Of a stretch of 64,000 nt of DNA, positions 13,905-62,929 are shown piece by piece (within the stretch, counting starts at the first letter, position 1; the number at the start of each line of letters is the position of its first letter). Position numbers and translations under genes: made by a program. The DNA comes from Stylophora pistillata (taxonomy: Eukaryota). The stretch lies in assembly GCF_002571385.2 (NCBI RefSeq), contig NW_019218088.1, positions 215,218 through 279,217 on the forward strand, read 5' to 3'. The notes under the pieces were generated by a model. That model did no database searches. It saw only the letters and a list, made by a program, of their open reading frames with translations, and was not told the DNA's origin.

Positions 13905-15077
13905 TATCTATATTTATTTTATTTATTTATTTTTTTTATACACGGTAAAAAAGTTCATACAATGACTAACTTCCTAAAACCTAAAAATCCTAATCCTAAC
14001 ATTATATTAACTTACAATATGCCACTTCAAAAATCTGATTTCCATGAACGCCGTGCTTAAAAATTTTATAAAGAAGGCGTTTAAATTGGTTTAATGAACC
14101 AGACTCTCTAAGGTTACAGGGCAAGCTGTTCCAAAACGTTGCGCCGCTGTAACTAAAACTATTTTTCCTGTAATTAGTTCTTGGAAAGGGACAACAAGTT
14201 TGCTTACCGAGTTCCTCAGAGAATAGTTTGATTCATTTTGCTTTATAAATTTAGACGTGAGATATTCGGGAGCCAGCCCGATTGAAGACTTGAAAACCAT
14301 TAAGACGTTGAGATTTCAAGTCTTTCCACCTGAGTTTATGGAACAAAGAAACGACATCTACGTCATAGTCTGATGCAGTTATTCAACTCGTGACTCGTGC
14401 AGCATGGCTTTGTAGTTTTTGTAGCTAGTTAAATAATATACTTTGCCACAATTACCCCAGACTAGGCTGCAGTAATCAAAGTGAGATTGAACTAGTGAGC
14501 TGCATATACCAATTAGGGCGGATTGAGGCACAAATGGCTGAACTCGCTTTATGGCTCCAATTGCAGAAGCGATCTTTTTACACAGTTTATCAATGTGGGA
14601 ATGCCACGTTAAATTTTCATCGATATACAGAAGAAACTTTTTCAATCGGAATATTATCAATGGAGAGCTCGAGTGTATCAGATAGAGTACTTAATCCTTG
14701 CCTGATCAACATAAATTCAGTTTTTGTAGCGTTCAAGTTAAGTCAGTTAGACACAAGCCATTTGCTTAGCTTTTCAAGGTCGTGAGATAGACTAGACTGA
14801 ATCAAATGCAAATCAGAACCAGCATAAGTAATGTGGATATCATGATCAGCATACATTCTAGGTATACTGAACGAAAGACAGTTAAGCAAATCGTTAATAT
14901 AAATGAGAAATATAAAAGAGGGCCAAGGATCGTTCTCTGTGGCACACCACATTACGAATGGTGAAGTCAGAGAGACAACCGTTAACTGAGCACCGTTGTT
15001 TGCAATTCGTCAAATGCGATTTAAACCAGTCAAGAGTTTTACCTTGAATTCCACATCGATTCATTTTATTTAGTAAT
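13905..15077 (-). mobile_element. 5'-truncated, decayed CR1/L2-group LINE
   Basis: GIQGKTLDWFKS...IYINDL...YAD...LSKWLVSN...IDENLTWHSHIDKLCKKI...FDYCSLVWG; simple-repeat (TAAA)n tail at ~13905-13935. Confidence 0.9.
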
Positions 15078-15542
15078 ATGTTTAGATATAATAGGCTCCT
15101 TACGCTAAGAAGTCACGTGATCTTTTCCGCCATGATGGAGGGCAAAGAAGTCGGTTGCTACGGGAAACAATGGCTTCCTCGTGAGATGACGAAAGGTGAG
15201 TTACGCAAATATCACTGGCTCTACTTGCTTCTTTGTTTCGGAACAAAACGATCTTTATCCACTGAGAACTCTCAAAAAGAGCGACTGTAATAGTTGCAGA
15301 CCTACTGCTGTTTTTGATTTGTCGGAAAGCTCCATATTTGCTTGTGTTTTCGCGTTCGTGTAATCCGCACTTTGCCAACTGGTACGTCATATCATTTTTT
15401 TTTTTAACTTCCTTTCAACGCCGGTTTTGTCTATTTTTAAGTTGATATTGTTAGGTGATGATCGTCGAGTCAATTTAGTTTCCAGAATGGTAGCGAATAA
15501 AACATTTCCGAGTGAAGGTAAGAAAAATAAGTTTGTTTACTT

Positions 15543-20815: not shown

Positions 20816-21506
20816 NNNNNNNNNNNGTCGTTGCCATTTTGAAACGGTCATTGTCATTTGTCGAAACAGTCGTTGCCATTTTGTAATGAATGGCAACGAC
20901 TGTTATCGGAAATGGCAACGACCGTTTCAAAATGGTAACGACCGTTTCAAATGGCAACGGCCGTTTACGAAAGGGAAAATTGCACCGAGGTGACTACTTT
21001 TTATTCTTTGAATCTCTTCCAACCCCCAGCTAACATAAATATCCCATAATTCTCCACACCCCTCTCTGTACATTCACTTTCGTACTGACAGGGAGAATTC
21101 GTCTAACAATCAAAACCTCCTAGGTTGGCGATCATTTTCTTTATTCCAGAGAAATTAGAAGCCAGTCACTCTTGGAGTTTAAAGACTCAAGACAAAATTC
21201 TTACAACAATTTGCATGTTTGCCATTGCAATCACTGTGTCTTTTTTCGTTACAGGCTACTGCATGTTATGTTTTTTTCTAAATGTTAAAGTTGATCGATT
21301 ACCCATAATTCTTAAGTCGTTTAGTTTGGCGGAGAGTTATTTTTCAGCCCAAAAAAACTTGTTGTGGCGGGGGAAAGAGAGCTGACGCTTTGAGAGTTAT
21401 CCCTTCGTCAGAGCGAATGAAACTGTTTACAGAAGCCAATTTCCAAATCATAAAACATAATACAAATAGAACGAAGTGAACGATAAGAAAATAATGAATA
21501 AGTTAC

Positions 21507-21881
21507 CTTTAGAAGCCGCTAAGACATTCAAACTGAAACCCCTGTAATTAGTTATTCCATCAGACGAGAACCTTACAAGCAGATGACGACCAGTGGAGTA
21601 AATAACCTCAGGATGCACTTTTCAACAATAGGACCCAAGGAGATTGGACACAGTGCTGTTACCGTCATAAAAGTCCAACCTATCATCAGAAAAATATCCA
21701 AAAAGTCCCTGTTTGACCTGAAAGTCGTTAAATGTCACCTTCACTATAGCACCAATGAGATCAGCTTGGATATGTCGAGTACAGTCCAAGTAATAGGTGT
21801 AATAGGATGGATAGCCAGGACTTGTGATAGTCGAACTTTGCCTTGTGAAGGCAACAATTTCTTGTGGATAAACTGAACAAC
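21507..21881 (-). pseudogene. CUB-domain exon (type A) with a nonsense codon
   Basis: 375-nt exon GCSVYPQEIVAFTRQSSTITSPGYPSYY...LLGSYC*KVHPEVIYSTG; TGA at 21622-21624 replaces the conserved Gly; a conserved Trp and Cys are also lost. Confidence 0.85.
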
Positions 21882-22460: not shown

Positions 22461-25400
22461 CTATGCTTCCGCCNNNNNNNNNNNNNNNNNNNNGGGGGGC
22501 GCGGACGGTTCTACTTGTGTACTCTGTTGCCATGGGTACGACTGACCTGGAGGTGGATACTGAGGAACTTGTTCCTCCCCAGGGTACGGTGGTGGTGGCT
22601 GCAATGGATACGGGTACCCTGAGGGTGGTGGATGCGCGTTAGACGGCGCAGGAGCAAAAAGCACAGGAGGGGGTGGGTAAGGATTTGATGCCGATTGGAA
22701 AGGAGGTTGGCTTGCCGGTTGCTGAAATGGGGTTGGATGGTGAATCACACCTGAGTGTATGGTCTGAGACATCGAGGCGGTAGTTTGTGTCGCCATTGAA
22801 ATCCTGGCAGCCGCGGATTGATTCCGTCTGGTCTTCCTGCATTTTAAAACACATACCAGACCACAAGTGCAGATGACGAAGACAACCGAAAAGACAATGG
22901 CGAACACACTAAGCGAAGATAACTCTGGAGAAAGAAAAATATTAATAATCATGTAAAGCTACAACCTACCTCCTCATGTATCCTTATCATGGCTCCTTTT
23001 AATATCCTATTCTATTGATTTAATCAACTATTTTATCAGTTAATAAGTTGATATTTTCTGACAAGCGATCTTGAAAATTAGAAGCGACGTAATTTCAAGT
23101 TGGGGGCGACGCAATTTCAAGTTGGGGGCGACGCAACCCTATTTCGAGGTGACGGAACTTTATTTAGAGGCGACAGAACTAGAGGCAACCGTGGAAAAAG
23201 GCGAGATCACCTCCAACCCGATATTAAACGCGAAAAACTAAACCCAATCCTTCGAACAACTTGGTCCTGAATTTTAATTCGCCAGTTGGCGAACAGCATG
23301 AAGTTATCTCAACGTCCTCCATGCAGACCAGCGCTCATTATACGAGACGTCGTCATTAACTTTTTTGCACGACTACACACTCAAATGGTGATCAATCGCA
23401 ACGAAGAAAATTAGTGAGCACAGACCTGTCTCTACGCACCCGATTCGCCTTTAATCTACCGCTTATAAGCGAATCTAATTATACCAAATTACCGCATACA
23501 TGCTGATAAAGTAGGACCTATTTACCTACCGAGACTAGATTACCGAGAACAAAACAAAGGCCAAAACAAAAGAAAACAAAACAAAACAAAACAAAGGAAA
23601 AAAAAACAAAGGAAATGATTTCAGAATGTCTTCGGTATCGCAGTCGCACTTGACATGTGGCAAGGTACAAGCGAAAGAGGAAAATTCATCGCTTTTACAT
23701 CTGGTAAAAAGAGATCATGGATAAAATTCCACGCGTGAAGATTACTGAAGAACAGAAAAACATTCTGAAATCATTTCCTTTGTTTTGTTTTCCTTTGTTT
23801 TCTTTTGTTTTGGCCTTTGTTTTGTTCTCGGTAATCTAATCTCGGTAGGTAAATAGGTCCTACTTTATCAGCATGTATGCGGTAATTTGGTATAATTAAA
23901 TTCGCTTATAAGCGGTAGATTAAAGGCGAATCGGGTGCTCTACGACTCGGACGTCACGATCTTGCATCCACAAAGCAGATGCTTTTTTTGAAACTTAAAT
24001 GCTTATCTTAGCGAACAAAGATAAAAGATGGTTAGCGGCCGCTTCGACCATGTTTGCTAAAACCACATTTCAAATAGCCCGGCTTAGTCCTATGTAAGAA
24101 GTGTCTTACTAATAATACTCATGAACTTAGTTAAGCAACTCACTTTTTTTCTCTTCTGCTGTGAATGTAGCCTTGAAGCCATCGTAAAACGTAGAATCGG
24201 AGTCGGATCTGAAACTCACCCTCATGTACCGTCCGCTTGAGAGAATGTCCGCTGGCGTTGAAAGACCACAGAATTTCCCTTTACTTGTGCTGTAACTTTC
24301 TTTCCCGTCACGAACCTCTACATAATCTTCACTGCATGATCCGTAGTCAGATTCCAGCTGAAATTCATAAAAGCTGAGCTTTACAATCTTTCCCTCTGGC
24401 ACAGTGATCAGCCAATCACATCTCATATTTGGTGGGTATGAAGAACCTTCCTTTGGACTTTCTAGGGTTCCATATGTTCCACTCAAACTCAGTTTTTCAT
24501 TGTTGGCGTTCCCATAGTAACACTTCTCCTTTGAATTAGCAGTGGAGGCTATGGAAAAACATGCGAACAAGTGACTGTGAATACATGAATATCATATAAT
24601 GAACTGCGGATTGATAAATAAAAGATGATACTGATTTTCGCAATAAAGAGTATCACTTTAAAAGGAGTAGTGAAAATAAAGCCTGAAAACAAAATTCAGG
24701 CTTGTACAGGAGTTTAACCCTTACAGGGTATGAAGAAACTTCCTTTGGACTTGCTTAAGTTCCTTTCGTACCAGTCAAACTCAGTTTCTCATTGTTGACG
24801 TTGCCTATGTAGCACTTCTTCTTTCAAAAAGTAGCAGAAGCTATGAAAAAATACTCCGAAAAGTCATGAACTCATAATTATAGCGCCATACTCTAACAAA
24901 CTGCCTAACTGGGTATTTGTACAAACAGACAGTAGTCTTATTTCATTTACACCATCTCTCTCATAACTCACTCCGAGTTGAACAGCATCAATCATAGCTG
25001 CAATGGAAAAAAGAAATCATTTCCACTTGTTTGCCCTCGAAAAGAAGAATGACGCACGGTTTTCTCATGGTCGTCCGCCTATAGAACCAATCCCAACAAT
25101 GGATTCTTAGAATTTCTTAGAATTGGGCACCAACAAAAATAAAAACCGAGGTACTAAATTGACGTGTCCACTTTAAGTATATATCTATCGGCGTTCTAGG
25201 CAGCAATCTGATTGGCTACGCTGCTCACCAGCTATTCCGTGAAAGACATTGAACACTCTTTTCTGTTTTGATGTTACGTTCCGAACGCCCAGTAGATTTA
25301 TTCTAAAACATTCAGTTTATTTGCTCTCAATTTCTATACGTGATAGATAACTCAGGTTTCACCCTCGTCCAATATTGAAAAAATGGAATCCATGTTGCCG

Positions 25401-28400
25401 TGCGTCTATAGAAATCTCGAGCTTGGAATCAAATTGTAAAATAGAGAAGTATGTGGCGTAGAGATCGAAACAAAACTCAGGCTGGTCCACTCAATACTTA
25501 CAGGGCTCTGAAACTTCGTAACGTGCTTTAAATCCTTTTTTCGTTCCAAGGGCAAATGACGTGGAGGAAAACGTAACCCTCATGTGATTTCCTGTCGAAT
25601 AAAGATCTACTAGATTCTCCAACGTGTGATATCCACAATAGAAAACAAGCTCTTTACTCGAAGAGTCCTTCCCGTCACGAATCTCCACGAAGTCTTCTTC
25701 CTCAGAAACATCTCTACAGTGGGTGAAGCGTGTTCCGAGGTCATAGTCTTGGAACGTCAACTTCACTATTTTTCCAGAGGGAACGGAGATCACCCAGATG
25801 CACTTGGAATCACTTGGATATGGATATGGATAATAAGGACTGAATATTGTTCCAGAAGGGCCACTGAGCTGCATGACATCATTATTTGAGCCTCCAGATG
25901 TTTTCCGACATACTCCAGCGGCTTCCTCTGTTAGGAGTGAATTGAACATTTTCATTAAAATCCTCGTTTTTTATGTACATTGCGGTTTATCTGGGAATGT
26001 TCAATTTACCTGTCACTTAAAATTTATATAAGAAAATATCTGATTTTGGATTGAAATCGGAACCACGGCCTCTTAAGTCAGTTACGATCAGATGTTCAAG
26101 GGCTCTCTCCCCATGGCACCGCGGCACACTGGCCTGTGTGATTGTTTTTAACTTTTTTATTATAAGACAACTTGGTTTTGACAGCCTGAAATAACGCCAC
26201 CTTAACATCCCTAGTCACCATAAAGTTGCCACGTTTTATTTATTCATTTATTACAATTTATGGCTTACAAAAAAACAGAATTTCTGCTTCTGTTTCTGTT
26301 TCTGTTTCTAAAGATTTGTACATTGTACAGGTGGAAGAACAATAGGACACGTAGTCCCCTACTAAACCCAACCCACCCATCCCACCCCGGGGAAGGACAT
26401 CCATCACACAGTAATCTCGTGCGTGCGAAATTAACCTCTCCTACCCCTCCTGCAGGAGACGGGACCTCCATTTATTCGTCCCTATCCGAAAAGACTAGAA
26501 TATCTAGCCATTTCTTGATGTTATACAAAGGTAGCATATTCTTCTCAATTATTTTAAGACCTTGAGTGCTGGTCCGGCCGGGGCTCGAACCCTCGACCTC
26601 CCGCACAACAGTCCAGCGCTCTATCCATTGAGCTAACTGGGAGGCGGTCTAAAGAAGCCAAAGGGATAAAATGCAAAAGAGTATTGGACCCCATATCAGA
26701 GCAGATCACCCATGGTACTAGAATGAAAATAATGATGCAAATTAAAATATGGTAATAATAAATATACATATTAAACAATAAATACACTAAAAGAATGAAC
26801 TAGTCCATGGAAAACTTTCTAAGACTTTAAAAGAATTTACACCTGTTGCCTCACGAATACAAAGGGGAAGGGAGTTCCATGTTACTACAACTCTGTGAAA
26901 ATAACTATATTTAAGAACATTCGTTCTTGCGTGCCTCATCTTTAGAGTTGTCTTATCGTTGTGTCTAAATGAATAGTGATCAGTACCCTAATAGAAATCT
27001 ACATGAGGTCCAACATCAAAATCAATTATTCTGTGGAGAGCTTTGTAGGTGCAGACATCTGATCACTGTGTGGGGGGGGGGGGGGTACCCTACTATCTTC
27101 TAAGTTAAATTTAGCCAATTTACTGTTCACTTCTTACACCAAGAGTACTTTTTGTAACATTATTCTTTAAATTTTAGTCTGTTTAAAAACCCACATGCTG
27201 GTCAAATTATGGACAATTATGGCCATTTTACTGTTTATTTCTTACACCAAGTATTTTCTAAACAGCAGTTTTCAACTCTTACTTGGTTGAAAAGGCTTAT
27301 GCACAAACAATGTTATAAATTACCTTTCAAAACAGCTGAAACACTCAAACTGAAACGCTCCCTTCTTTTAATATTGTCAGACAATAACTTGACATACAGG
27401 TGATGCCCAGTTGAATAAATAACCTCAGGATGCACTTTTCCACAGAAGAACCCAAGGAAATTAGACCCAGTGCTGTTACCATCATAAAAGCTCAACTTGT
27501 CGTCAAAACAAGATCCAAAGGAATTCTGTCCAACTTGAAAGTCATTAAATGTCACCTTAACTATGTAACCAGGGTAGTTAGCTTGAAACAGCCATGAACA
27601 TTCCAAGTTAAAATTGTAATTAGATGGATAGCCAGGACTTGTGACAGTTTTATTGTACCATTTAGAGACAAAAATTTCTTGTGGAAGAAATGAACAACCT
27701 AAAGTTTAAGGAAATCATATTAAAATGAGTATATACAAACAAACAAACAAAACAAACAAAAAAGAAAACAAAGCAAAATGAAAATCTTGTTTCATTTCAT
27801 TTTTTCTTTTCATCTGGCAATGGAGAAAATCAAAACTTCAAAATAGAGGAGGTAAGTTTCTAAAGAAACTGTAGTGGTGTTACTTCCTAGGAATGTAGGG
27901 TCAAGGGGATCCTGTCACTGAACAGGTTCCCCCTTTCACGACCAGAAAACTAGAGTGAAGTTGCATATTTTAGCGCATTTTTGGGGATTTGGGAGGGTAA
28001 GAAAATTCTGGTAATTAGGAATATACAAATGGCCTTCTTAAAAGGCTCTGTGAGGTGGATGCATTAACAGAAAGTAACCAAGCTGAGATCATGAAAATTG
28101 CATTTGCCCAAAAGTGACTATGATGAGGTTTAATTGGCCACTGAATTTATTATAATAGGATGGGGGCTTTGGGATTTTTGGTTTTGACTGTTTTTTTAAT
28201 CAGTTTTTCGGTTTTTGGGCCAAAAAGGTCCGGTTTTTCGCTTTTGATGTTCAGAGCGGTTTGCAGATTTTACGTGTTTTTGCATTCGGTTTTCACGAAA
28301 ACTCTGATGTGGTTTTCAGTTTTTCCTTTTTGACCCCTTTAAAGGTGAAAATGTAGCAGTTTTGCCAGGTTTGCATGTGGTTTTCAGTTTTGCTGCCTTT

Positions 28401-29744
28401 TTTTGTCGGTTTTTTCCTCCGGTTTTGTGGTTTCCCAGAGGCCCCAATGCCCCCCTCTAATAAAATGGGGGTTTTAAGAAGCCAGCACCACATACCAAGC
28501 AAGTAAGTAAATATTTGTTTGACCTTCAGGAGCTTTGTAAGTTGATTTCCTTTATTTTTGTGTCCTTTAAGTGTCAAGTATTCAAGGGTGATACTGTGCA
28601 GAGAAACAATATCTTAGTCATTCAAAGTGGTAAAAGGGTATAAAAGTTTTGTTAACTTACCTTGTCCAAAGGCAGTTTCTGAAGCCCAGGAAGCTAATAC
28701 AAGACCTATGATCAAAATTTATGTGAAAGTTGTTAATATGAGAAGAGTATCAAATTAAATTCACAATGTTTAGGAGAATTGCAAACCCTAGGTTTTAGAA
28801 TATATCAACAAAGTTGAAATGGTAAATTGGTCACCGTAACGATTACAAAAGCTGACATTTCGAGCGTTAGCCCATAGCGTCGGAGCGAATAGAGGAATTG
28901 TGGGTTGTGTGTGCTTTTAAAGGCAGAAAATGGAGCTACGTTATTGGTGGGAACATGGCAACGAGAAAAACATGAATAAATTAGTGGAATAAAAGATTGC
29001 CATATGTTGCTTCCTGGCATAGCTCCTAGGTTTTTGAGACTTGTTTAACAGAAAACCAAACAGTTTGAGGGACTACACCAGATAGGAAAATGTACTTAAC
29101 TGACCTTTTTCAACAGCTTAAATTTGGAACTATGCTCTTTAATTAGGTACAACTGCCTAGAGGGAAACATTTAAGTTTAACTAGTAACCAACTTTTCCCT
29201 CTGATTAATCCACTAATTAGCTAACTCCCCACCACCCCCATCTCTACCCATATAGAACAATAGACTTGGTTAAATCTACGTGTTACATTGGTCTTGAATG
29301 GTTTGACAAAACGAGGGTAGAAACGAGCTTTAGAGTACGTTTACAAATTAAACGAGATCTCAACTGAGGTGACGTACGTGACCAATATCAGACACAGACT
29401 TTGTAAATTCGTAAGGTTTGAATGCAAATTCGATCGATGTCACACCGAAATCAAGAACAACAAATCAAGAACCGAAAAATCAACAAATCAAGAACCGAAA
29501 TCGATGAAAAATTTAGATACCAGTATAATGCTCTCCTCTCACTACCTCGACGGGTAAAAGCTATACCTTCCTTTAAAAGTAATTCAGTGACGGAGCTGCA
29601 CCACTGATGTTCATCTTCGAGTTGTACGCACCGTAACTTAGTCCATCGTTTCACACCTAAATTTAGGAACTCCCCCAAGAAAGATCGTACAAATATAAAC
29701 ATACGAGATCTACCTAAAATGTTGAGGCCTGATCCAGGTGCCAT
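22461..29744 (-). CDS. Type I membrane protein: signal peptide + 3 CUB domains + TM + Pro/Tyr-rich cytoplasmic tail (~580 aa)
   Basis: Exons 29714-29744, 28661-28705, 27324-27698, 25502-25927, 24144-24548, 22461-22924. All introns are GT-AG phase 1 and the frame is open. N-terminus MAPGSGLNILGLVLASWASETAFGQGC; TM VFAIVFSVVFVICTCGLVCVL then KCRKTRR. The last codons are obscured by gap 22474-22493. Confidence 0.88.
23437..23937. mobile_element. MITE with ~180-bp TIRs, CA...TG ends and a 7-bp TSD (P-superfamily-like)
   Basis: CACCCGATTCGCCTTTAATCTACCG...CGGTAGATTAAAGGCGAATCGGGTG; CTCTACG at 23430-23436 and 23938-23944. Confidence 0.85.
24726..24840 (-). pseudogene. Truncated pseudo-exon (5' part of CUB-C) inside intron 4 of the intact gene
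   Basis: SATF*KKKCYIGNVNNEKLSLTGTKGT*ASPKEVSSY with the acceptor retained; 24784-24819 is identical to 18071-18106. Confidence 0.8.
26230..26648 (-). mobile_element. tRNA-derived SINE; related copy at ~38790-39110
   Basis: Head agttagctcaatggatagagcgc...gggttcgagcccc, SINE core shared with 20430-20815, and a (TAAA)-like tail. Confidence 0.75.
28801..28890 (-). mobile_element. Penelope-like element terminal fragment (minimal hammerhead-type motif, degenerate)
   Basis: Inverted copy of 30011-30093; related motifs at 5314-5352, 15776-15812 and 21381-21419. Confidence 0.55.

Positions 29745-30775: not shown

Positions 30776-30806
<31 letters not shown>
30534..30806. mobile_element. hAT-like MITE with a 5-bp TSD, nested in a piggyBac-type MITE
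   Basis: TIR CAGGGTTGCCAC / GTGGCAACCCTG; AACTT at 30529-30533 and 30807-30811; internal ttccctgact repeats. Confidence 0.75.
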
Positions 30807-31446
30807 AACTTCTTCCCATAATATCTATGCATTTTCCAACAAACAGGTATTAACAATACTCAAACTTATCAGATTGGAGTTGTCATCTTGATCTAACACC
30901 AAACTCTTGTAACTAATTTACAAGGAAATCTGTATCGGCTAGAGGGGAGAAATTACAATCACATCTTGGGGGTTAAAGAGAAAGACAGAATCTGAGATCC
31001 AGTTAGATCATACAGTCCTGCTAATGTTCTCAACTTTTAACAAGTTTATTTAGTTTTACTCGCAAGATGATCAGCCTTGACTGAAGGTATTAAAATGTTA
31101 CAACAGTTAAGACTGATTATCTTGATCCAACAACTGTAGATATCAGTGTTGTTAAATACTTGTAGCTACTGAGAGTTCCCTCTGAATGTTATAAATTACC
31201 ATAAAAGTGTGATCAATCACAACTTTGACAAGAGGAGCTGAACAGAAATAGTAAAATGTAAATGATCACGATTAAGACAATGCCAAATCCTGCATTTTTT
31301 TTTCTTTCAGTCTAGCTGATTAATTAAAGTATTCAATCACTGGTGTTGTACGATGATGATGATAAACTTCTTTGAATGGAAAGACAACATTCTGTACACT
31401 TTAAAACATTTTTTTTTTTTACATCTGCTGCCATCAGAACAGAGGT

Positions 31447-37045
<5,599 letters not shown>

Positions 37046-38354
37046 TGTTCTGATGTTGGACACACGGTAATGGCAAGGCTGTAATCCAAGGATTGGCGAT
37101 TAGAAATAAGTTTGACAACAGATTTTGTGTTTGTTTTACGCGGTGAACGACCATGAAGAATCGTGGTGCATTGTGGACTTTTGCGCTTCCCGCGTCAATG
37201 AGAGAAGACTGGGGTTACCTAAACTATTTTCTATCCCAGACTCTTATCATTTTCACAATATTCAAGACGAACCTTTGTTTTTTTCCCTTTGTTAAAGGAA
37301 AAAGTGTTTTTCTAGGTTGCTTTATAATTTTGTGTTAAGCTTTGATTGTTTCATGCCTAACTTTGTGCCAGAAATTTCGATAAGTGTAACGAGATCGCCA
37401 TCAACTCATCGGTACGTCTGACTGATTACAAAAAAGACGTGAAATGCGTTTATAAAATAAGTTCCAATTATCTTAATTTGAAACCGCTTGCTATTTTTAT
37501 TTGTAATCTTGTGAAATAATTTGTATCTTCATCAAAACAAAATAGGTTAATTTGGACAGGAAACACTTGCATTGTGACACCTTTCGTTAATCCACCTGAA
37601 GTAATTCAATCAATTAGGTCCTTTAAGGGTCGAAAATGAAATTATTTTCAAGCACTTAACAGGAGTTTGATCAATCCTGCTTTAGTAGCACCAAGATCGC
37701 AGTACTTGACCAGAGGAGACCGACCCTGGAGGCGAGAGACCAAGACTTATCCCAGACTCCCTGATCCCGGCCTGGCACGCATGCACTGAACTTAAGTCAG
37801 CAGCTTTGTGAAGGAGTTGTGCCAGGGTCTGATTCTCCTCAAATAACCTCGGTCGCTTGAAGATCTTGTGGGTGAGAGAGGGTGTGTTTTGCGCTTTTCA
37901 CTTGAAATAGTTTTCATTTACCAAAAGTGCGTTTTTTATGCCCTGCCCATGGTGGCCTCAGGAAGGAAATTCTGGAGATTCATTCCATAACTGACCTCAT
38001 ACGTTACCAGCGGAAACTATCACAGACATAATTAATTTATTTTCAAATAAGTATCTTTGATTCTGTTTCGGTATGTATACCTCATATCATGATCCTAGCA
38101 CTTGAGCGAAGTTTAGCCGGATGGTAAAAAGTGATAGGTTCTCAAACCGCGGAAATGTATCTGTGTGTTGACGCGCCCTGAATGTAATTTTAAAGAGTCT
38201 CTGTCATCATATAATGAGTCAATATTTGCTCCAGATGTTGAAAAATTATCTGCAAATCAGAGCCGGAATCGCACGATCTTTATCAAAAGGAAGCATGGTA
38301 GTCCCGCATGGCAATTGACTGAAAAACAAGAAAGAGGTAACGAAAGTTATATAA

Positions 38355-46900: not shown

Positions 46901-49105
46901 ACATCCCAACAATTTATTTTTTTCTCGTGATATTCCGGCCATTGGCAGAAAGTGTCCATTTTCTAAAACGGGAGAAAAAATTGAGAAAAACTGCCATTTT
47001 AACGGACAAATATTTATAAATGTACTTATATTGATTGTCTTACAGCTCCTTTGACTTCCGTAACACTTTGTTGAAGCTGGTACGTGCCTTTATATCTCTC
47101 CCAAGTATTCATCATTTCCATTTATATCGTCTCACTCGGAAATTCGATCTTATCACGGAACTAAAAGTTGTTAGGAGTGTAAGTTTTTTCGTGGTTAAGA
47201 AAGAAGTATTCATTTTTTTCCTTTACGCATAAAATAGCACTTCCAAATGGCGCCATACGTCTCTGCAATTTAAATTTTTTTTCGAATACTGCTTTGATTA
47301 CGTCTGGATGGGGGCATTGAAAAGGTTCAAGGGCAAATTTTCTTAACGGCCGAGTGATGATTTGACGCATCAGGACCCCCGCCTCCGCACGAAATCTCTT
47401 GCGGGCGTTCTAGTTTGCAACAGAGTCTTCAACTCTAACTAACACTTTGAAGATGGGGGCATTTGAAAAGCGCAAACTAAAAACAATCAAGAATCAACTT
47501 TTTAAGATCGAAATTTGTTTCGAAACGTTTAACATGGACAGTCGATGATTGATAGTCTGAAGTGTGCGATAAATGATTGTTCTAAATGACGCATGAAGGT
47601 TTGAGAAATGGGAAATCATGTGTTTGAATTATATCTTGTGGTTTCTGGCTTAAGTGCAAAGATTCTCAGACAAGATGTTAATTGCAGTCGAAGCATTTGC
47701 TTCTGTGGGATAGACATTTTAACCGCTCTGACCAAAACTTGCACAAAAAAAACCCGGATAACCCGAAGAACTTTGAGGGATCTCTAAGGTACATAACCTC
47801 TTTTTATTACTTATATTTTATTCTCACGTGAACCTCAGTTTAAAGATAAAATCTAGATACTTTTTTTTGTATGAATTCTAGCTTCATTTTTACAATTAAC
47901 ACTTTGAATTTTTTTTGATAGCGCGCAATTCCGTATCATTTGGATGTTGTTTTATACTTCACAATATTGTAAAGTTTCCGTGACGCAAGCTCTAAGAAGC
48001 GAAATCGGCTCAAATAGTTCTCCTTTTGTTCTTTCTGTTTGGCAAGCACGTCTCGTGTTTTAGTTATAGTGGCTAAAGTTTTTACACTGAAGGATTACAC
48101 AAAAACAAACATCCTTAGGTCATTTTGAATCTCGCGATGGCATCTGTTGAACACGGTTAGCTTTGATGTTCTTCTATTCTCAGTTGTGATTTATCTATTC
48201 TTAGTCAGATCTCTTTTCTGAGCTTCTTTGCAGCATGCTTAAAGTGTAGGTAAAAGGTGCTATTAAAGAGAATTTCGATAGATCTTTTTCTGTAAAGTCA
48301 TTGATATCCCCAGATTATCGCAAGCTTTAAATTAATGCGCGTGTTTTATCAGAGATGTGGCCTATCAAGTAGTACGGCCTGTAACATTACCTTTCGTCTC
48401 GCACGATCACAAAGAGCGACAGAAACACTCGGATATCTATTTTAAGGTGCACTATGAAAAAACACAATATTGCAGTTTAATTTGAGTCAGCGTGCAAATT
48501 GGTTTTTGTCCTGTCTCTGCGTTAAAGGCTAACATCGGGAGTCCTCGCACATTCGGCACGAACTATTTCGAACTAAGCATCACTTGCTGGTATTGGGTCT
48601 ACTTAGTTAAAAGGGTGAGATATGGATCAATGCCCATCTCTACATAGATTATTTTTGCTGTTCACCGGCCATTTTAGCGATGTTAGTGGTAGTAAAATCT
48701 TTCTTTGTCCCGCTTTGCGACGAAACCCCACTTGGTGGGACAAGCATGAGCTTTCGCTGGGGGAAAGGAAAAAACCTGCGTTTGATTTGCTATTGTTCAA
48801 AAAGGCCGGCTGGATTTTTCTCTTCTGGTTTAAAGGAAATCTTTGATTAGTAGCCAGCCAACAATCGAAGTTACATCTTGGTTTGAAGTAGTCGTATTTT
48901 GATATGAAACATTGAACATCCTTGCTTTTGACAGCGGACATTTAATAGCCCGTTTAGGCGATTTCGTTACAACGATACCTGGTTTAGACTACTTTACATT
49001 GCAAGCCTCGACATGTGACAGCTTGCGGTGATTAACATATGAATCATATTTTAGCTTGCGAAAAAAAATGTTAATAATCCTCTTCTTCTCTGGCAGTCTC
49101 ACAGG

Positions 49106-52100
49106 ATGACAAGTATTTATGACAACACCGTTTGCGAAGTGAAAATACAGATGCCTATTCCTGGTAATCCATTTCCAAGAAGTTCCAGACGAGGAAATTA
49201 TCGGGTAAGGACCAAAGCGCACCCTTTCCGCCACACAGATTGGGAAGAGCTACTAAAGAGAGAGTGGAATAAAAGGGCACCTCCCCTCTCGCCGCTGGAA
49301 TGGAGGGAGAAGCACGCTAGAAATACGAACGCTGAGGATTACTGTGAGTTTCTCATGGGAAGGAGATGTGGCAGAAGGCGCAGGTTGCTTTTCCGAAGTG
49401 GCTATTACTTAACAATTCAACCGGATGGGAGCGTCAAAGGAACAAAGCAGAAAGATTGCCCTTACGGTAGGTTAACGTAATGTTATGTAGCTTTGCGTGC
49501 ACCTAAAAAAAAAGAAAAGCGCAATTGATTGATTAGGAAGGCCGTGGAAAGGACTATTCTCTGTAACGACGACTGACGTTTGGACAACTTGAGCGGATGT
49601 CAACATTAGACGGATCGTATTTGACCAAATATACATTTGACACAAGCTGCTTTGGTCTTGCAGCCAACAACAAAACGTACGGAAAATTTGAGCGATAAAC
49701 AAATTTGACATTCGAATGTAATCAATATTTACATTCGACTGACAAAAAGCGTTCTCACTAAGCGACCAGTCGTTATTTATTATTGGGGGAGGGGGGACCG
49801 GAGGGGATTTGGAGGATCTGGGGGGATTCACATAGTTTTCAGGGGGAACTTAGGGAGGATCATTCGTCGCTAATAGACAGAGTATTGAAGGAGGTACATT
49901 GAAAATTGACTGCCAATTAAATGCTGTTGAAGGGTGATCATGAAAACCTTATAGAGCCTTAGGGAGAGAGGGGCGGGGGAAAAGGGTAAAGTCTGTTTAC
50001 GAGCCAAGTGGCCCATCAGGCCGGTGCATAACTCCGGTTTCTGTCGCATAAAGCGACTAGGAGTGTTTCCACTCCCCCCTGGATGGGATGCAAGTCCATC
50101 GCGGGGTCACCCCCCTGCATTAAATTCGTCGGTACTCATTAAATACCTGGGCGAAGAGGCACTGTGCAAGTAAAGTGTCTTGCCTATGGGGAGGGGGGAG
50201 GGGGGAGGCCAGGTAAATTATTATCGTGACACAACGAAACCCCTCCCCCCCTCTCCAAGCCCCAGGAGATACATAATGACTGGTCGCTTAGATAGTCGAA
50301 ATATACAGCCATCACTAACACCGACAAGTATGCTTTCCATCTCACCCTCATAATTTGCTGCACGATCGATTGTTGTACTTGGATACAAACCATTGTAAAA
50401 CTTCCAGTAAAATGTTTTTCAATGGTTTGTATCAATGTATTTTTTTAAGCATGTTATCGCAGCTGCTGACAAATACCTTTTGGGGTAAGGCTTCTTTTAA
50501 AGCCGGAAACGAATTCAGATTACCGCAATGTCAACATTCGTCAACATCAGACCGAGGTCGCTTAGTTCTACCTTACCTGATGGTCTTTTTGTCCCCTTGG
50601 GAGAACCCAGTGGAGACCAGTTATTTTTAATATCCTGGGGAGAAGGAGCAGAGGAATTTGTTTGCGTCACGATAAAGTTCTCTTGATCCCCCATAAGGCG
50701 CTGCAATATTTTTAAGGTACTCTCCCTCATTGGTAGTTAGTTGCCCCCCCTTTCATATTCTGGTGATGACTACGGATCGCCCTCCGCTCCCTTAAAAAAC
50801 ATTTGTTCCTTACCCCCCCCCCGAATTCTTCGACTCCCTCCCCACCTCCCAGCGACAGATATAGGCTGGTTCCTTAATTCCAACTCTCTTTGTAGTTGTG
50901 GACCTGATTCGTTCCCAGTCGTCTATCCTGGTCTCTAGAAGAGCGAGGGAACTGGGATTGAGTCCTATTGGGCTTCCTTTACCTCTTTAGTCGACAGGAG
51001 ACGTGTCAGTTGGTTCGTAAAATGTTCAGAATGCACCATGAGGTTTTGTCGTAGGTTTTTGTTAAGTATCCTTAAACTCGCGGTTCTGATAGACTTCATC
51101 ATAAAATTTAATTTTTCATTGCATGATCAATCTCTCCAGCTACTAAGGTTAATTCCCATGCTATGTTACCTTTTCCCCGAATCTAAATTAAATGATAAAT
51201 TTCCCAACTGGCGTATTTTCTTCCCTTTGACAGCGATTGTAGAAATCTGCTCAGTGGGAGCTGGCTTAGTGAAAATCGCAGGAGTAGAGACGGAGTTCTT
51301 TCTTACAATCGATGATTCTGGAACTCTACGTGCCACGGTGAGTCTAGAAATAAAACGTGGATCTCATGCGAATTTAATTTGGCATTGCACGCACCTAAAT
51401 TACGCGACGTCTCTTAGTAGTGTAGATATATCTTATTAAACGTTTTGTTGTGTTGTATCGCTGAGCATTTTTACGAGTTGTGCTCTATTTTGACGAGTAA
51501 AAATACTCAGTGATACGACACAACAAAACGTCTGATTAGTTATTTATCATCCAACACGACAAATTGTTATTTCAGCGCAGGCGAATTTCTTAGATATCTA
51601 TTACTAAGAGTGCGTGACAGAAGTATGCAAAGCGGAACGGAATTGGCGCGTTGTCATGTTGCTATTTTCTTCAATAAATAATGAAATGTCATTTTCGTCT
51701 AATTGCTTTTCTTCTTTCGGTCTATCTGATAAACTTAGATTAATATTCGCCAGCCACTCACACCCTTCGTCGTGAAAAAAATAATTTAAATTGTCAGCCA
51801 TTTTTTTTGTAACTTCAATCCAATTCGTCGCTTGCGCGATGCGAGAAAACCTGTCTAACCGGTTCTCTGGAGTAACAATATCGCGTGATGTTTGTACTCG
51901 TCTTGGGTGTTATTTGTACTCCATGGAGTTTAGTTGGATAATTAATGTATTTACCCGAAAGAATACAAGAGCCTGAACTAAAACCGCGTTTGGTTAGTTC
52001 ATGTTGTACAGCGCCGCACTTCTACGATGTAGATAGATAAGTACTGAAATAAATGCATGCAGAGCAACCATTTGACTTTCATTATTATCCATTTTCAAAC

Positions 52101-55820: not shown

Positions 55821-55911
55821 AGTTGCTACTAATTAACGTAAACTTCGAACGGCATTCTTATCTCCGATCGTCACACTAAAGGAGCATCAGAGTTTTACGG
55901 GTGGCGTCAAA

Positions 55912-56370
55912 ATGAGCAAAAAACCAGTCCTGAGGGATGAAGGAATGCTTAAAGATATCTTCCAACTATATGACACAACAGGAGGGGACAAAATTGATGT
56001 GAATCAACTCGGGCAGGTTTTGCGAGCGGCAGGGCTGAATCCAACTCAGAGCGAAGTCCAGAAAGTGGAAAGAGATGTTGGCAAGTCGACCATTTCTTTC
56101 GAGGAATTTTTGCCGATTTACAACTCCGTCGCACAGCACATGACAAGTGTATCGAGCGTGAGTCCTGAACAAGTTGTGGATTGTTTCAAACACTTCGATC
56201 GGGAGGGAAGCGGTAGTATTTCGTCCAGTATGCTACGCCATGTTCTAACTTCGTTGGGCGAGAAACTCACAGATGAAGAATTCGATGCTTTGTCGTCAGG
56301 CCATGTTAGCTCAAAAGGAGAAATCAGTTACGAAGTCTTCATACCCGCCATCATGGCAAACGCTGAGTAA
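55912..56370 (+). CDS. Intronless myosin essential light chain-like EF-hand protein (152 aa)
   Basis: IFQLYDTTGGDKIDVNQLGQVLRAAGLNPTQSEV...ISFEEFLPI...FKHFDREGSGSI...LRHVLTSLGEKLTDEE...ISYEVF; Kozak-like aaaATG; ATTAAA at 56392. Confidence 0.9.
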   Translation: MSKKPVLRDEGMLKDIFQLYDTTGGDKIDVNQLGQVLRAAGLNPTQSEVQKVERDVGKSTISFEEFLPIYNSVAQHMTSVSSVSPEQVVDCFKHFDREGSGSISSSMLRHVLTSLGEKLTDEEFDALSSGHVSSKGEISYEVFIPAIMANAE

Positions 56371-60562: not shown

Positions 60563-62929
60563 CCCTTTCACTCCCACCAGGGTTCTGTTGGAAACCACTC
60601 TAATTGCCCAAGGGGTGTGGGATATTATGGTTGCTTTGGGGGAGAAACTAGGGGTACCTCAACACAAAGGAAAATAACCAGAAAACTATGCATTTTTAGG
60701 AGTTGCAATGCAATAAAAGTTTATTGTATAGAGAAAGAACTTTCATATCAATATAAAATTAATGCAGTTGGAGTTTATACAAACAAGTTAACTGCGATAC
60801 AAAACTGCATTTTAAGTGATCCTCCTCATTTCAAGGTAAGTTGTGAAATATACTGGTAAAATTTCAAATTTATTCAACACTAAAAGCAGCATACTAAAGG
60901 ATTAAGAATATTATATCAATTTCTAAGATAACAAAGTGAAATACAATGCAAAAAAAATTGGCAAGTCTGGGATTTACGAGTAATTTCATTTCAAGTTTCA
61001 GAGTTCCCGTTCTCGCAAATTCGAATTTCGCGCGGTTGGTGGTCACAGGTTTGCGGAATGATGGTTCTTAAAACACGTCAAACAAATTCGAATCCCGCAC
61101 AGTTCACATCCCATTCGACAAAAAGTGTTCTTTCTGCTCTTAAGGCATCGTTTGCACCTTCCTTTGGACATTTGCACGGGCCAGTGATGAGCTTGTACAG
61201 TTCCTTCGATTGCCGTGTTTCTCTGTCGTGCCGTAAACTCGCCAATCAACCCTTCGATTAGTTCAATGCGAAATTGAAGCTGTGATAGATCGGGATGATT
61301 GTCTGCCTCCATCATTAGAATATGTGGGTTGACAATACACACATCAATGCTAAACCAAAGCAAGTAACGCCACCACTTTTCTGCGCGACGAGAGGACTCA
61401 TAATACTGCCGCTTTTGGTCGCTGAGGTCAACTCCTCCCATGTATTTGTTGTAGAGTTGCACCACAGGAACAGTTGGGACTTGGATAATTGACCCGTCCT
61501 TTTGCTTTCGAGAAACGGTCTCGTTTCCCCCAACCTGGCATTGTGTGCTTATGAAGGAAACCAATTTTTTGTCCTTCCACACGGTCGCAACAACGTCCCC
61601 TTTTCGTCGAAAGAGCGATTCGCCGCGACGAAGAGCTTTCACAGCGGCCACATTTGGCTTGAGTTGTTTTGGAAAGTCCTTTCGATTCGAACGCGTTGTT
61701 CCACAAAGGTAGAGATCATTTTCCAAAAGATCTTCTGCAAGTTTTACAGAAGTAAAGAAATGATCACAAAAGATGTGATATTTTTTCCCGTGTAGGGAAC
61801 GAACGAGGTCAGAAACGACTCGATGACCGAGGCCATGTTCGATTTCATTGCCGTGTTTTCCGGTGTAAACTTGAAATTCGCACACATAGCCATTTGTCGC
61901 ATCAGCACGAACCCAAACTTCAATACCCCTCTTCACAGGCTTGAGAGGTAGATACTGTTTAAATCCTAACCTGCCTTTGTACTTCACCATCGCTTCGTCG
62001 ATGGAAAGAAATCTCGAAGGCCGATATTTCATGCGAAAGCTGCGTGAAACGGAATCCAACAAGGGCCGCACTTTGAACAACTTGTCGTGCCTTCGATCTT
62101 CACGAGGAAAGTTGTTATCACGATTATTTAGCTTAAGGTACCTGCGTACCTTTTCAAAACGATTTCTCGGAAATATTTTCTGAACGCTTAATACCCCGAG
62201 AAACGGATTACGAGATCAGTACAGTCGAACTTCGGGCAGATGTTTTATGCCGAATAAGATGTTTACACCAATAAACGCACGTATGTCCTCTGCCGAAGTA
62301 GGATACCACTGTGGGTCTGGTTTGGTTCGCATCTCTTGGTCTGCTTTCCTGTTTGTCTCCCTGGCAAGAAGTTCGAATAATTCTTCTTCGAACATCAGCA
62401 AAAAGAAATCAAGGGCAAAACCATCCTCAGGAACTCTCCAAGTTGCTCCCGTTCTTTCACTAAATTCGGGAACTACTACTGGCGAGTCATCGGTCGTCCA
62501 CTCCGTTTCATCAGTTTCTTCTTCTCTTTCGCTCTCGCTCTCGCTCGCTGAACCGCTGTCATTCTCACTCGAAACTGACACATCAGACTCATCACTTCTT
62601 TCAAAATTTATTTCTGCTCGAACTCTCTCTACATCCTCAACTTCAAACCCAAGAAACTCTTCCTCGCCGCTATCGGACTCCATTTTGTCGACGATTTTAT
62701 CGAGCGAATTGTGAATAAAATTTGTATGCGAGCCTATTGTGTTTTTGGTATCAAGAGAAACCTTAGGGCCTCTACTATTGGCTGAATTACGGTCACGCTT
62801 TAATTCCCCTATCTATCACGAGTTATGATTGGTCAAAATATGTTTGGTTTCAGAGTGCCATATGGCACTTATGGGAAAATATGCAAATTTCTAGACGAGT
62901 GCCATATGGCACTTATGGGAGTGAAAGGG
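60563..62929 (-). mobile_element. Full-length piggyBac DNA transposon (2367 bp)
   Basis: TTAA TSD at 60559-60562 and 62930-62933; 14-bp TIR CCCTTTCACTCCCA; subterminal 24-bp direct repeats gagtgccatatggcacttatggga at the 5' end. Confidence 0.95.
61043..62683 (-). pseudogene. piggyBac transposase (PGBD4-like), one in-frame stop
   Basis: 547 codons in one frame; TGA at 62216-62218 in the YWS motif (LY*S); DDD motifs SIDEAM, FCDHFFTS, GGVDLSDQ; C-terminal Cys-rich domain. Confidence 0.9.

Follow-up and report, generated by a model that had tools for sequence, protein, structure and literature searches.

A conserved PPxY-bearing tail in a scleractinian family of CUB-domain membrane proteins, likely recruiters of Nedd4-family ligases

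Do the short proline- and tyrosine-rich motifs in the cytoplasmic tail of a coral membrane protein form a sorting code, and if so, which machinery would read it? The question arises from a 64,000-nucleotide stretch of Stylophora pistillata DNA (contig NW_019218088.1, positions 215,218 to 279,217, forward strand; hereafter the window, to whose numbering coordinates refer), where an exon on the minus strand at 22924-22461 encodes a transmembrane (TM) helix followed by such a tail. An earlier note, made from the sequence alone, had seen paired PPxY and PSAP late-domain motifs in this tail and proposed that a variable CUB ectodomain captures a ligand and routes it to degradation through ubiquitin and the ESCRT machinery for endosomal sorting, or into budded extracellular vesicles. 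Our analysis indicates that the observation is real and that the gene belongs to a conserved, misannotated family of scleractinian proteins, PY-motif receptors or adaptors which likely recruit Nedd4-family ligases for endolysosomal sorting. To the specific reading that the conserved PPxY recruits such a ligase, that ubiquitin then leads to ESCRT-dependent lysosomal sorting and that PSAP is an optional Tsg101 contact, we assign a probability of roughly one half.

All tail strings quoted in the earlier note are present in a single minus-strand frame of this exon, and the features of the exon are the following:

22461..22924, minus strand: exon 6, the TM helix and entire cytoplasmic tail, with the joint 22924/24144 seen in raw reads
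22839..22901, minus strand: TM helix with a four-cysteine cluster at its end, the sole hydropathy peak above 1.6, at residue 436
22824..22844, minus strand: basic juxtamembrane stretch with K455 and K458, the only two lysines in the readable tail
22647..22658, minus strand: degenerate YxxPhi site (FAPA here; mostly GYAPV in many paralogs)
22605..22628, minus strand: degenerate first PY motif (PPSGY), at the place where most relatives carry a second PPxY
22584..22595, minus strand: PPPY, a canonical WW-binding PY motif, residues 538-541, with no read variant in four runs
22530..22565, minus strand: the PQYPPPGQSYPW block, PxYP-x5-YP-W, ALG-2 type-1-like
22497..22508, minus strand: PSAP, candidate Tsg101-UEV site, residues 567-570, optional in the family

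PPPY is the sole canonical PPxY among the quoted proline/tyrosine strings; PYPPPP (22682-22665, minus strand) and QYPPP do not have that form. Taken from this single sequence, the pair is weak evidence, only mildly beyond chance: when the 117 readable cytoplasmic residues were shuffled 100,000 times with their composition preserved, PPxY arose in 33% of cases, P[ST]AP in 11% and both in 3.5%. The finding is real because the motifs are conserved across the family, and not on the strength of one sequence.

Conservation was assessed in 57 tails (4 genomic and 53 from proteins; P0046 and P0051-P0053 were excluded from the family set as compositional matches), of which 9 were removed at 85% identity or more to leave 48. 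The conserved module is reached by 36 of these, and the remaining 12 end early or diverge. At least one PPxY is present in 34 of the 36 and two are present in 22, the two motifs being 10 residues apart in 23 of 24 two-PPxY tails; the four PPPY columns are conserved in 39/42, 41/42, 39/42 and 39/43 tails. Most relatives were found by tail queries, and conservation counts are therefore inflated, with the exception of a set selected by ectodomain only, which comprised 20 coral or coral-type proteins at 42% identity or more, picked from 120 listed of 159. Here 16 proteins have a TM helix, and PPxY is found in 13 of the 16 (the three misses have short tails), P[ST]AP in 5 and ASAP in 2; PPxY was found in none of five more distant coral CUB-TM proteins. 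The check proposed in the earlier note, conservation of the PPxY among relatives, thus came out in its favour.

The module, the protein's best-conserved stretch, spans residues 527-559 (33 residues) and is 94, 76, 76, 70, 58 and 82% identical in six relatives, for which identity is 32-75% over the CUB domains and 17-72% over the proximal tail. It exceeds every CUB in all six full-length comparisons, and for the Porites protein the values are 70% versus 32-39%. Against three genomic paralogs, the proportions of nonsynonymous and synonymous differences (pN/pS) in the module were 0.04/0.24, 0.22/0.62 and 0.12/0.65, the lowest of any region in two comparisons and near-lowest in the third, and below the values for the TM helix or the proximal tail. 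As judged from these alignments, purifying selection acts on the tail module.

Within the module, the PQYPPPGQSYPW block is the most constrained segment (Q 38/41, G 39/41, Y 35/37 and an invariant W 38/38); the earlier note had listed QYPPP and missed the full block. PxYP-x5-YP occurs in 22 of 36 tails, or 24 if Phe is allowed, and a similar pattern arose in 1.5% of shuffles. The proline following PPPY is retained in 39/43 tails. We consider that the PQYP-x5-YPW block would have to bind another conserved partner, for which a penta-EF-hand adaptor of the ALG-2 type is the most plausible candidate, although the spacings in the window gene, PPYP-x7-YP and PQYP-x5-YP, differ from the four residues that define the ALG-2 type-1 motif. 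An ALIX-type YPxL reading was dropped, as YPWL is found in only 9 of 31 tails. The invariant block may represent an undescribed linear motif.

PSAP appears to be real but accessory, as judged from its distribution. Among the 32 tails with 8 or more residues beyond the tryptophan, 9 have an exact P[ST]AP, 6 have ASAP and 21 have any [ST]AP; the ASAP tails, which would fit a putative relaxed Tsg101 consensus, [A/P][S/T]AP, were counted separately. In 2000 shuffled sets, P[ST]AP occurred 0.41 times on average and at most 4 times, a null to be read in light of the tails being related and thus non-independent. A tree of 31 tails, built with the PSAP zone left out, places PSAP in three separately supported clades and calls for five changes; pocilloporid, Oculina-type and Porites clades all have the motif at one and the same place, and P0008 and P0022 carry it twice downstream of the tryptophan. 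This would fit an old motif that has been lost repeatedly, with the reservation that the tree is unrooted. Among proteins bearing the module, 12 of 13 in the Pocillopora cluster and 10 of 10 in the Porites cluster retain PSAP; in the 90% cluster of the window gene, two of four module-bearing members (P0001 and P0164, near-identical transcripts) have PSAL. PSAP is thus retained far above chance in three clades, yet the conservation check of the earlier note fails for it in most relatives, an exact motif being present in a minority of tails, including 5 of the 16 chosen by ectodomain. Since PSAP is lost in most relatives, Tsg101-driven budding cannot be the core function of the family.

The membrane-proximal part of the exon adds further candidate signals. 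The TM segment includes ICTCGLVCVLKC at 22874-22839 (minus strand); at least one cysteine at the TM end is found in 30 of 31 tails, and the four-cysteine cluster is likely palmitoylated. A juxtamembrane lysine is likewise found in 30 of 31 tails, making K455 and K458 candidate ubiquitin acceptors. AlphaFold2 of P0001, the database protein that matches the gene model, predicts a helix at 431-461 and a tail that is unstructured except for one 3-residue helix, as would be expected of a segment acting through linear motifs. YxxPhi is present in 19 of the 48 tails, in 16 of them with Gly ahead of Tyr (GYxxPhi), the form for lysosomal sorting, and could be an independent pointer to the lysosomal route; no NPxY signal occurs in the tail of the window gene. 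Three of 32 tails end in S-T-F, which resembles a class I PDZ motif.

The gene itself has six exons and is expressed, and those upstream of the tail exon are:

29714..29744, minus strand: exon 1, start codon and beginning of a likely signal peptide, 100% identical to P0001 residues 1-11, with a GT donor in phase 1
28661..28705, minus strand: exon 2, remainder of the likely signal peptide, 100% identical to P0001 residues 11-26, AG/GT, phase 1
27324..27698, minus strand: exon 3, CUB-A (Pfam CUB E=3e-20), signature YGDD
25502..25927, minus strand: exon 4, CUB-B (Pfam CUB E=8e-21), signature YGDT
24144..24548, minus strand: exon 5, membrane-proximal CUB-C (Pfam CUB E=7e-26), signature YEDD

The model encodes 581 residues without internal stop, 558 of them identical to P0001, and its introns are all in phase 1 with AG/GT ends; the signal peptide was called by inspection. 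The joint 22924/24144 is supported by 16 and 52 raw reads in two runs and by contigs from two further runs, the joint 24548/25502 by 14 and 48 raw reads in two runs, and CUB-A and CUB-B are joined in one RNA contig; the two 5' joints rest on the P0001 match and splice signals. In four stranded runs, read depth over the tail module is about 40-95 and drops to none in the intron. Read differences in exon 6 fall at four places, none of them in PPPY, the PQYP block or PSAP, the last lying near the edge of the read-mapped stretch where variant detection may be weaker. At 22661 and 22755 the reads carry two alternative bases each and essentially never the base of the window, and these are probably polymorphic sites left unresolved in the assembly. 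The stop codon is placed at 22463-22461, and the 20 bases directly after PSAPP are N, so that the last approximately 10 residues are uncertain. Beyond the conserved tryptophan there are 22 residues in the model, 15 in three module-bearing proteins of its cluster and 97 in the closest named record, Stylophora pistillata 'tolloid-like protein 1', which belongs to the 90% cluster of P0001.

Three Pfam CUB domains, one in each of exons 3-5 (exon 6 gave no match above cut-off), together with the TM helix bear out the description of a CUB-TM receptor-type protein. A CDCP1_CUB match was below cut-off and was set aside. AlphaFold2 of P0001, run with 24 sequences, gives three beta-sandwich domains, and the best PDB match by both sequence and fold is cubilin CUB5-8 (3kq4), with whose CUBs the residues of CUB-C align. 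The ligands of Ca2+-binding CUBs are one Glu and two Asp (PMC10214685). CUB-C retains the Tyr/Glu/Asp/Asp of such domains and is the sole CUB here with the Glu/Asp/Asp triad. Across the family the full signature, with Asp accepted for Glu, is found in 13/24 last CUBs, 7/17 A-type and 0/20 B-type CUBs. The ectodomain is variable, as had been claimed, in the sense that records contain one to six CUBs, some of these records being partial; the ABC arrangement is commonest (9/24 records). A few allelic differences were also listed for the ectodomain.

From these elements we propose the following mechanism. CUB-C would bind ligand on the outer side of the membrane, the outside/inside topology of this single-pass, three-CUB protein being likewise deduced, and the PPxY in the tail would engage a Nedd4-family ubiquitin ligase through that enzyme's WW domains. 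The ligase may then ubiquitinate the juxtamembrane lysines, or a membrane partner in trans, whereupon the protein or partner would pass via ESCRT into multivesicular bodies and lysosomes. PSAP would serve as an accessory, low-affinity Tsg101 contact, kept by some paralogs and lost or replaced in others. Loci for the machinery assumed in the earlier note are present in this genome: on three contigs (C595, C126 and C71) WW matches have HECT matches nearby on one strand, and UEV matches occur on three contigs. In ARRDC1 both PPXY motifs are required for ITCH binding, as stated in a section of PMC5617834, and by analogy the two PPxY at a fixed 10-residue spacing in the coral family would suit tandem WW domains.

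Several observations weigh against this reading. A PPxY by itself does not name its WW partner, and the genome holds 23 WW matches, one of which looks YAP-like by eye. Of the motifs seen in relatives, the first PPxY and the YxxPhi have been lost from the window gene, and PPxY alone arises in a third of the shuffles described above. WW or Tsg101 binding leaves unexplained the most constrained segment of the tail, which is neither PPxY nor PSAP, and the inflation of the tail-query counts applies here as well. On the ectodomain side, the Ca2+-binding triad is without its Glu in CUB-A and is degenerate in CUB-B.

The PxYP repeats lead to a different proposal, in which an ALG-2-type penta-EF-hand dimer would bind the overlapping PPYP-x7-YP/PQYP-x5-YP and bridge to ALIX/ESCRT-I in a Ca2+-gated manner, the PPxY being secondary. 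The presence of PxYP-x5-YP in 22 of 36 tails, the rarity of a similar pattern among shuffles and the retained proline after PPPY, as a PPYP core requires, are in line with it, and passages of PMC5037681 list annexin A7/A11 sequences with the same 5-residue spacing as ALG-2 type-1-like and name Scotin, a type I TM protein, as an ALG-2 partner. The same passages, however, give 4 as the confirmed type-1 spacing, with variable spacing lacking experimental support, and report that no ALG-2 motifs of this type had been detected in the invertebrate homologs of ALIX or Sec31A (PMC5037681). The invariant tryptophan lies outside the ALG-2 motif, and no ALG-2 exon was recognised by eye in 50 of the 69 EF-hand_8 matches of the genome (30 loci and 20 stretches). 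We regard this proposal as rather unlikely. Recruitment of a non-ligase WW protein of the YAP/Yorkie, MAGI or KIBRA type, making the protein a signalling or junction scaffold and not degradation cargo, strikes us as similarly improbable: many of the WW matches have no HECT match nearby and the S-T-F ends would fit PDZ-WW scaffolds, but those ends are confined to one clade and absent from the readable tail of the window gene, and co-occurring PSAP and GYxxPhi point toward endosomal sorting.

That PPxY and PSAP act as viral-type late domains, budding the receptor into extracellular vesicles in the manner of ARRDC1 microvesicles, we likewise hold to be unlikely. The tail has the two motifs and four RNA runs show no variation in either, PSAP recurs in position in three clades and is doubled in two proteins, and exosome-type secretion is invoked by the authors of a coral skeletal proteome (PMC7115838). 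Nevertheless, 23 of the 32 tails are without exact PSAP; PSAL, found within the gene's own cluster, removes the last proline, described in an excerpt of PMC11670305 as the main UEV anchor; ASAP failed to support budding in Tacaribe Z, as recounted in part of PMC3509680; and PSAP in a single copy is a weak binder that depends on the avidity of oligomers (PMC13442042). Neither the closest named accession nor the terms 'tolloid' and 'bone morphogenetic' appear in the S. pistillata skeletal proteome paper (PMC7115838; main text and Table 1), in which a positive control was found; the supplements could list the accession. The notion that the motifs are chance words in an unconstrained Pro-rich tail draws on the high single-sequence background and on weak profile matches that include unrelated TM proteins with Pro-rich tails, such as oyster P0046 with PSAPP. 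It conflicts with the conserved positions of the motifs, the low pN/pS and the outcome in the set selected by ectodomain, and with PSAP in 9 of 32 tails where the shuffled sets of these related, non-independent sequences reached at most 4; it is very remote overall and, on the alignments, already refuted for the PPxY and the tryptophan block.

The preferred reading, ligase recruitment by the conserved PPxY, belongs to a mechanism class, the PY-motif membrane adaptor, that is already well known. Commissureless, PMEPA1/LDLRAD4 and PRRG are single-pass PY-motif adaptors for Nedd4-family ligases, and the window protein shares with them one TM helix, a Pro-rich tail, a conserved cytoplasmic PPxY (34/36 tails; 13/16 in the ectodomain-selected set), usually two PPxY in the family and, likely, the bringing of a WW-HECT ligase to membrane cargo. 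It differs in its large, exon-shuffled multi-CUB ectodomain, the extra PxYP-x5-YPW and an optional PSAP; no significant sequence match to these adaptors was found, a weak Pfam Comm match over the TM helix (E=0.014, 16.1 bits versus a cut-off of 27) being rejected. LITAF and retroviral Gag combine PPxY and PSAP, and both motifs of such late-domain proteins are present in the window tail. ARRDC1 also has both in one tail, with ITCH/WWP and TSG101 as expected partners (PMC5617834). In contrast to ARRDC1 and LITAF, the window protein is an integral, receptor-type protein in whose family PSAP is not conserved throughout, and it gave no arrestin (alpha-arrestin) or LITAF domain match. With the Shisa-like/STMC6 proteins and SHISA5 (Scotin) it shares type I TM topology, cysteines at the TM end and a Pro/Tyr-rich tail; its ectodomain consists of CUBs only and lacks the luminal six-cysteine domain described in the cited part of PMC5037681. 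Atlas feature matches of 0.78-0.79 (Shisa5 clusters 0.78) were under the lead threshold of 0.9.

Tandem CUBs, the 3kq4 match and the Ca2+-type triad of the membrane-proximal CUB recall the cubilin-amnionless system. Cubilin has many CUBs and EGF repeats and no TM helix; the window protein has 3 CUBs (1-6 in the family), no EGF domains and its own TM helix and tail. With tolloid/BMP1 only CUB domains are shared: the four main exons and P0001 are of CUB type only, without astacin (PF01400) or EGF domains and with TM helix and tail, and true tolloids in the ectodomain search carry PF01400. In the absence of an astacin domain, the name 'tolloid-like' is wrong and reflects annotation transfer. The skeletal CUB dcp proteins of Acropora are likewise coral CUB proteins with a lineage expansion; in the cited part of PMC4890752 they have one CUB and a Thr-rich region, are classed as extracellular-matrix-like and have no other known domains, an architecture different from that found here. 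We found no description of a coral CUB-TM-PPxY family in the full-text literature, the coverage of which leaves out subscription journals.

The window gene heads a tandem array of 24 CUB reading-frame matches at 162-243 kb of its contig (G000:C304). Tail exons are located at 237.7, 211.6, 182.5 and 161.3 kb, plus a weak one at about 155.9 kb, and C37 carries a paralog with five CUBs. Tail queries returned 13 and 19 longer proteins, and 38 relatives were found among 50%-cluster representatives; as only four genomic tails went into the tail profile and the genome searches score no more than top candidates, family counts are lower bounds. Named members come from Stylophora, Pocillopora, Oculina, Desmophyllum, Orbicella and Porites, the last of which sits across the deep Robusta/Complexa split. 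No Acropora or anemone member appeared in searches with this small four-tail profile, by which absence is not established.

Further observations concern the array and its surroundings. More divergent tail exons with PPPY lie at its far end (161.3 kb and 155.2-155.9 kb), and in the paralog tail at 182.5 kb (L003:1471-1920) the PQYP block is disrupted, a PTAP occurs internally and the C-terminus reads S-T-F, an end shared by P0020 and P0027. On the minus strand, window 2-21900 holds the CUB exons of a downstream paralog unit with in-frame stops at 21624, 4181, 274 and 256; these exons are either duplicates in partial decay or errors of the assembly, although the unit's tail exon, which lies beyond the window, is intact. 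A 797-bp duplicate of 99.9% identity (4760-5556 and 20827-21623), containing part of a CUB exon, is either a recent tandem duplication or an assembly artefact. Inspection suggested a spliced, multi-exon centrin-like gene immediately upstream (about 30800-37100, minus strand), FGF-like exons (49055-51440, plus strand), a single-exon EF-hand frame resembling myosin light chain and also matching EF-hand_8 (55837-56367, plus strand) and piggyBac-like transposase frames (61046-62812, minus strand); reverse-transcriptase-like fragments lie near 8003-8737 and 14400-15100. The oyster protein P0046 joins an unrelated small Cys/Tyr ectodomain to a TM helix and a PSAPP tail, a tail design that thus recurs in invertebrates.

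Taken further, the data can be arranged into a bolder picture, which we consider speculative and doubtful. Stony corals would possess their own self-anchored mini-cubilins, assembled from phase-1 CUB exons that were shuffled onto a single tail exon, where 45 residues would supply ESCRT with three inputs: tandem PPxY directed at Nedd4 ligases, an ALG-2 site dependent on Ca2+, and PSAP directed at Tsg101. Calcium on either side of the membrane would gate ligand capture or vesicular export, and by exchanging sorting codes (PSAP, GYxxPhi, PDZ end) paralogs would send different ligands to lysosomes or extracellular vesicles.

Nothing here supports a link of the gene to symbiosis, immunity or calcification. 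Many coral CUB proteins carry borrowed names, and the present family can be defined by a precise intracellular code. If our reading is true, corals have a dedicated array of ubiquitin/ESCRT-coupled uptake or down-regulation receptors, with at least five tail exons in this genome, and the family would provide a handle on questions of coral endocytosis and vesicle traffic.

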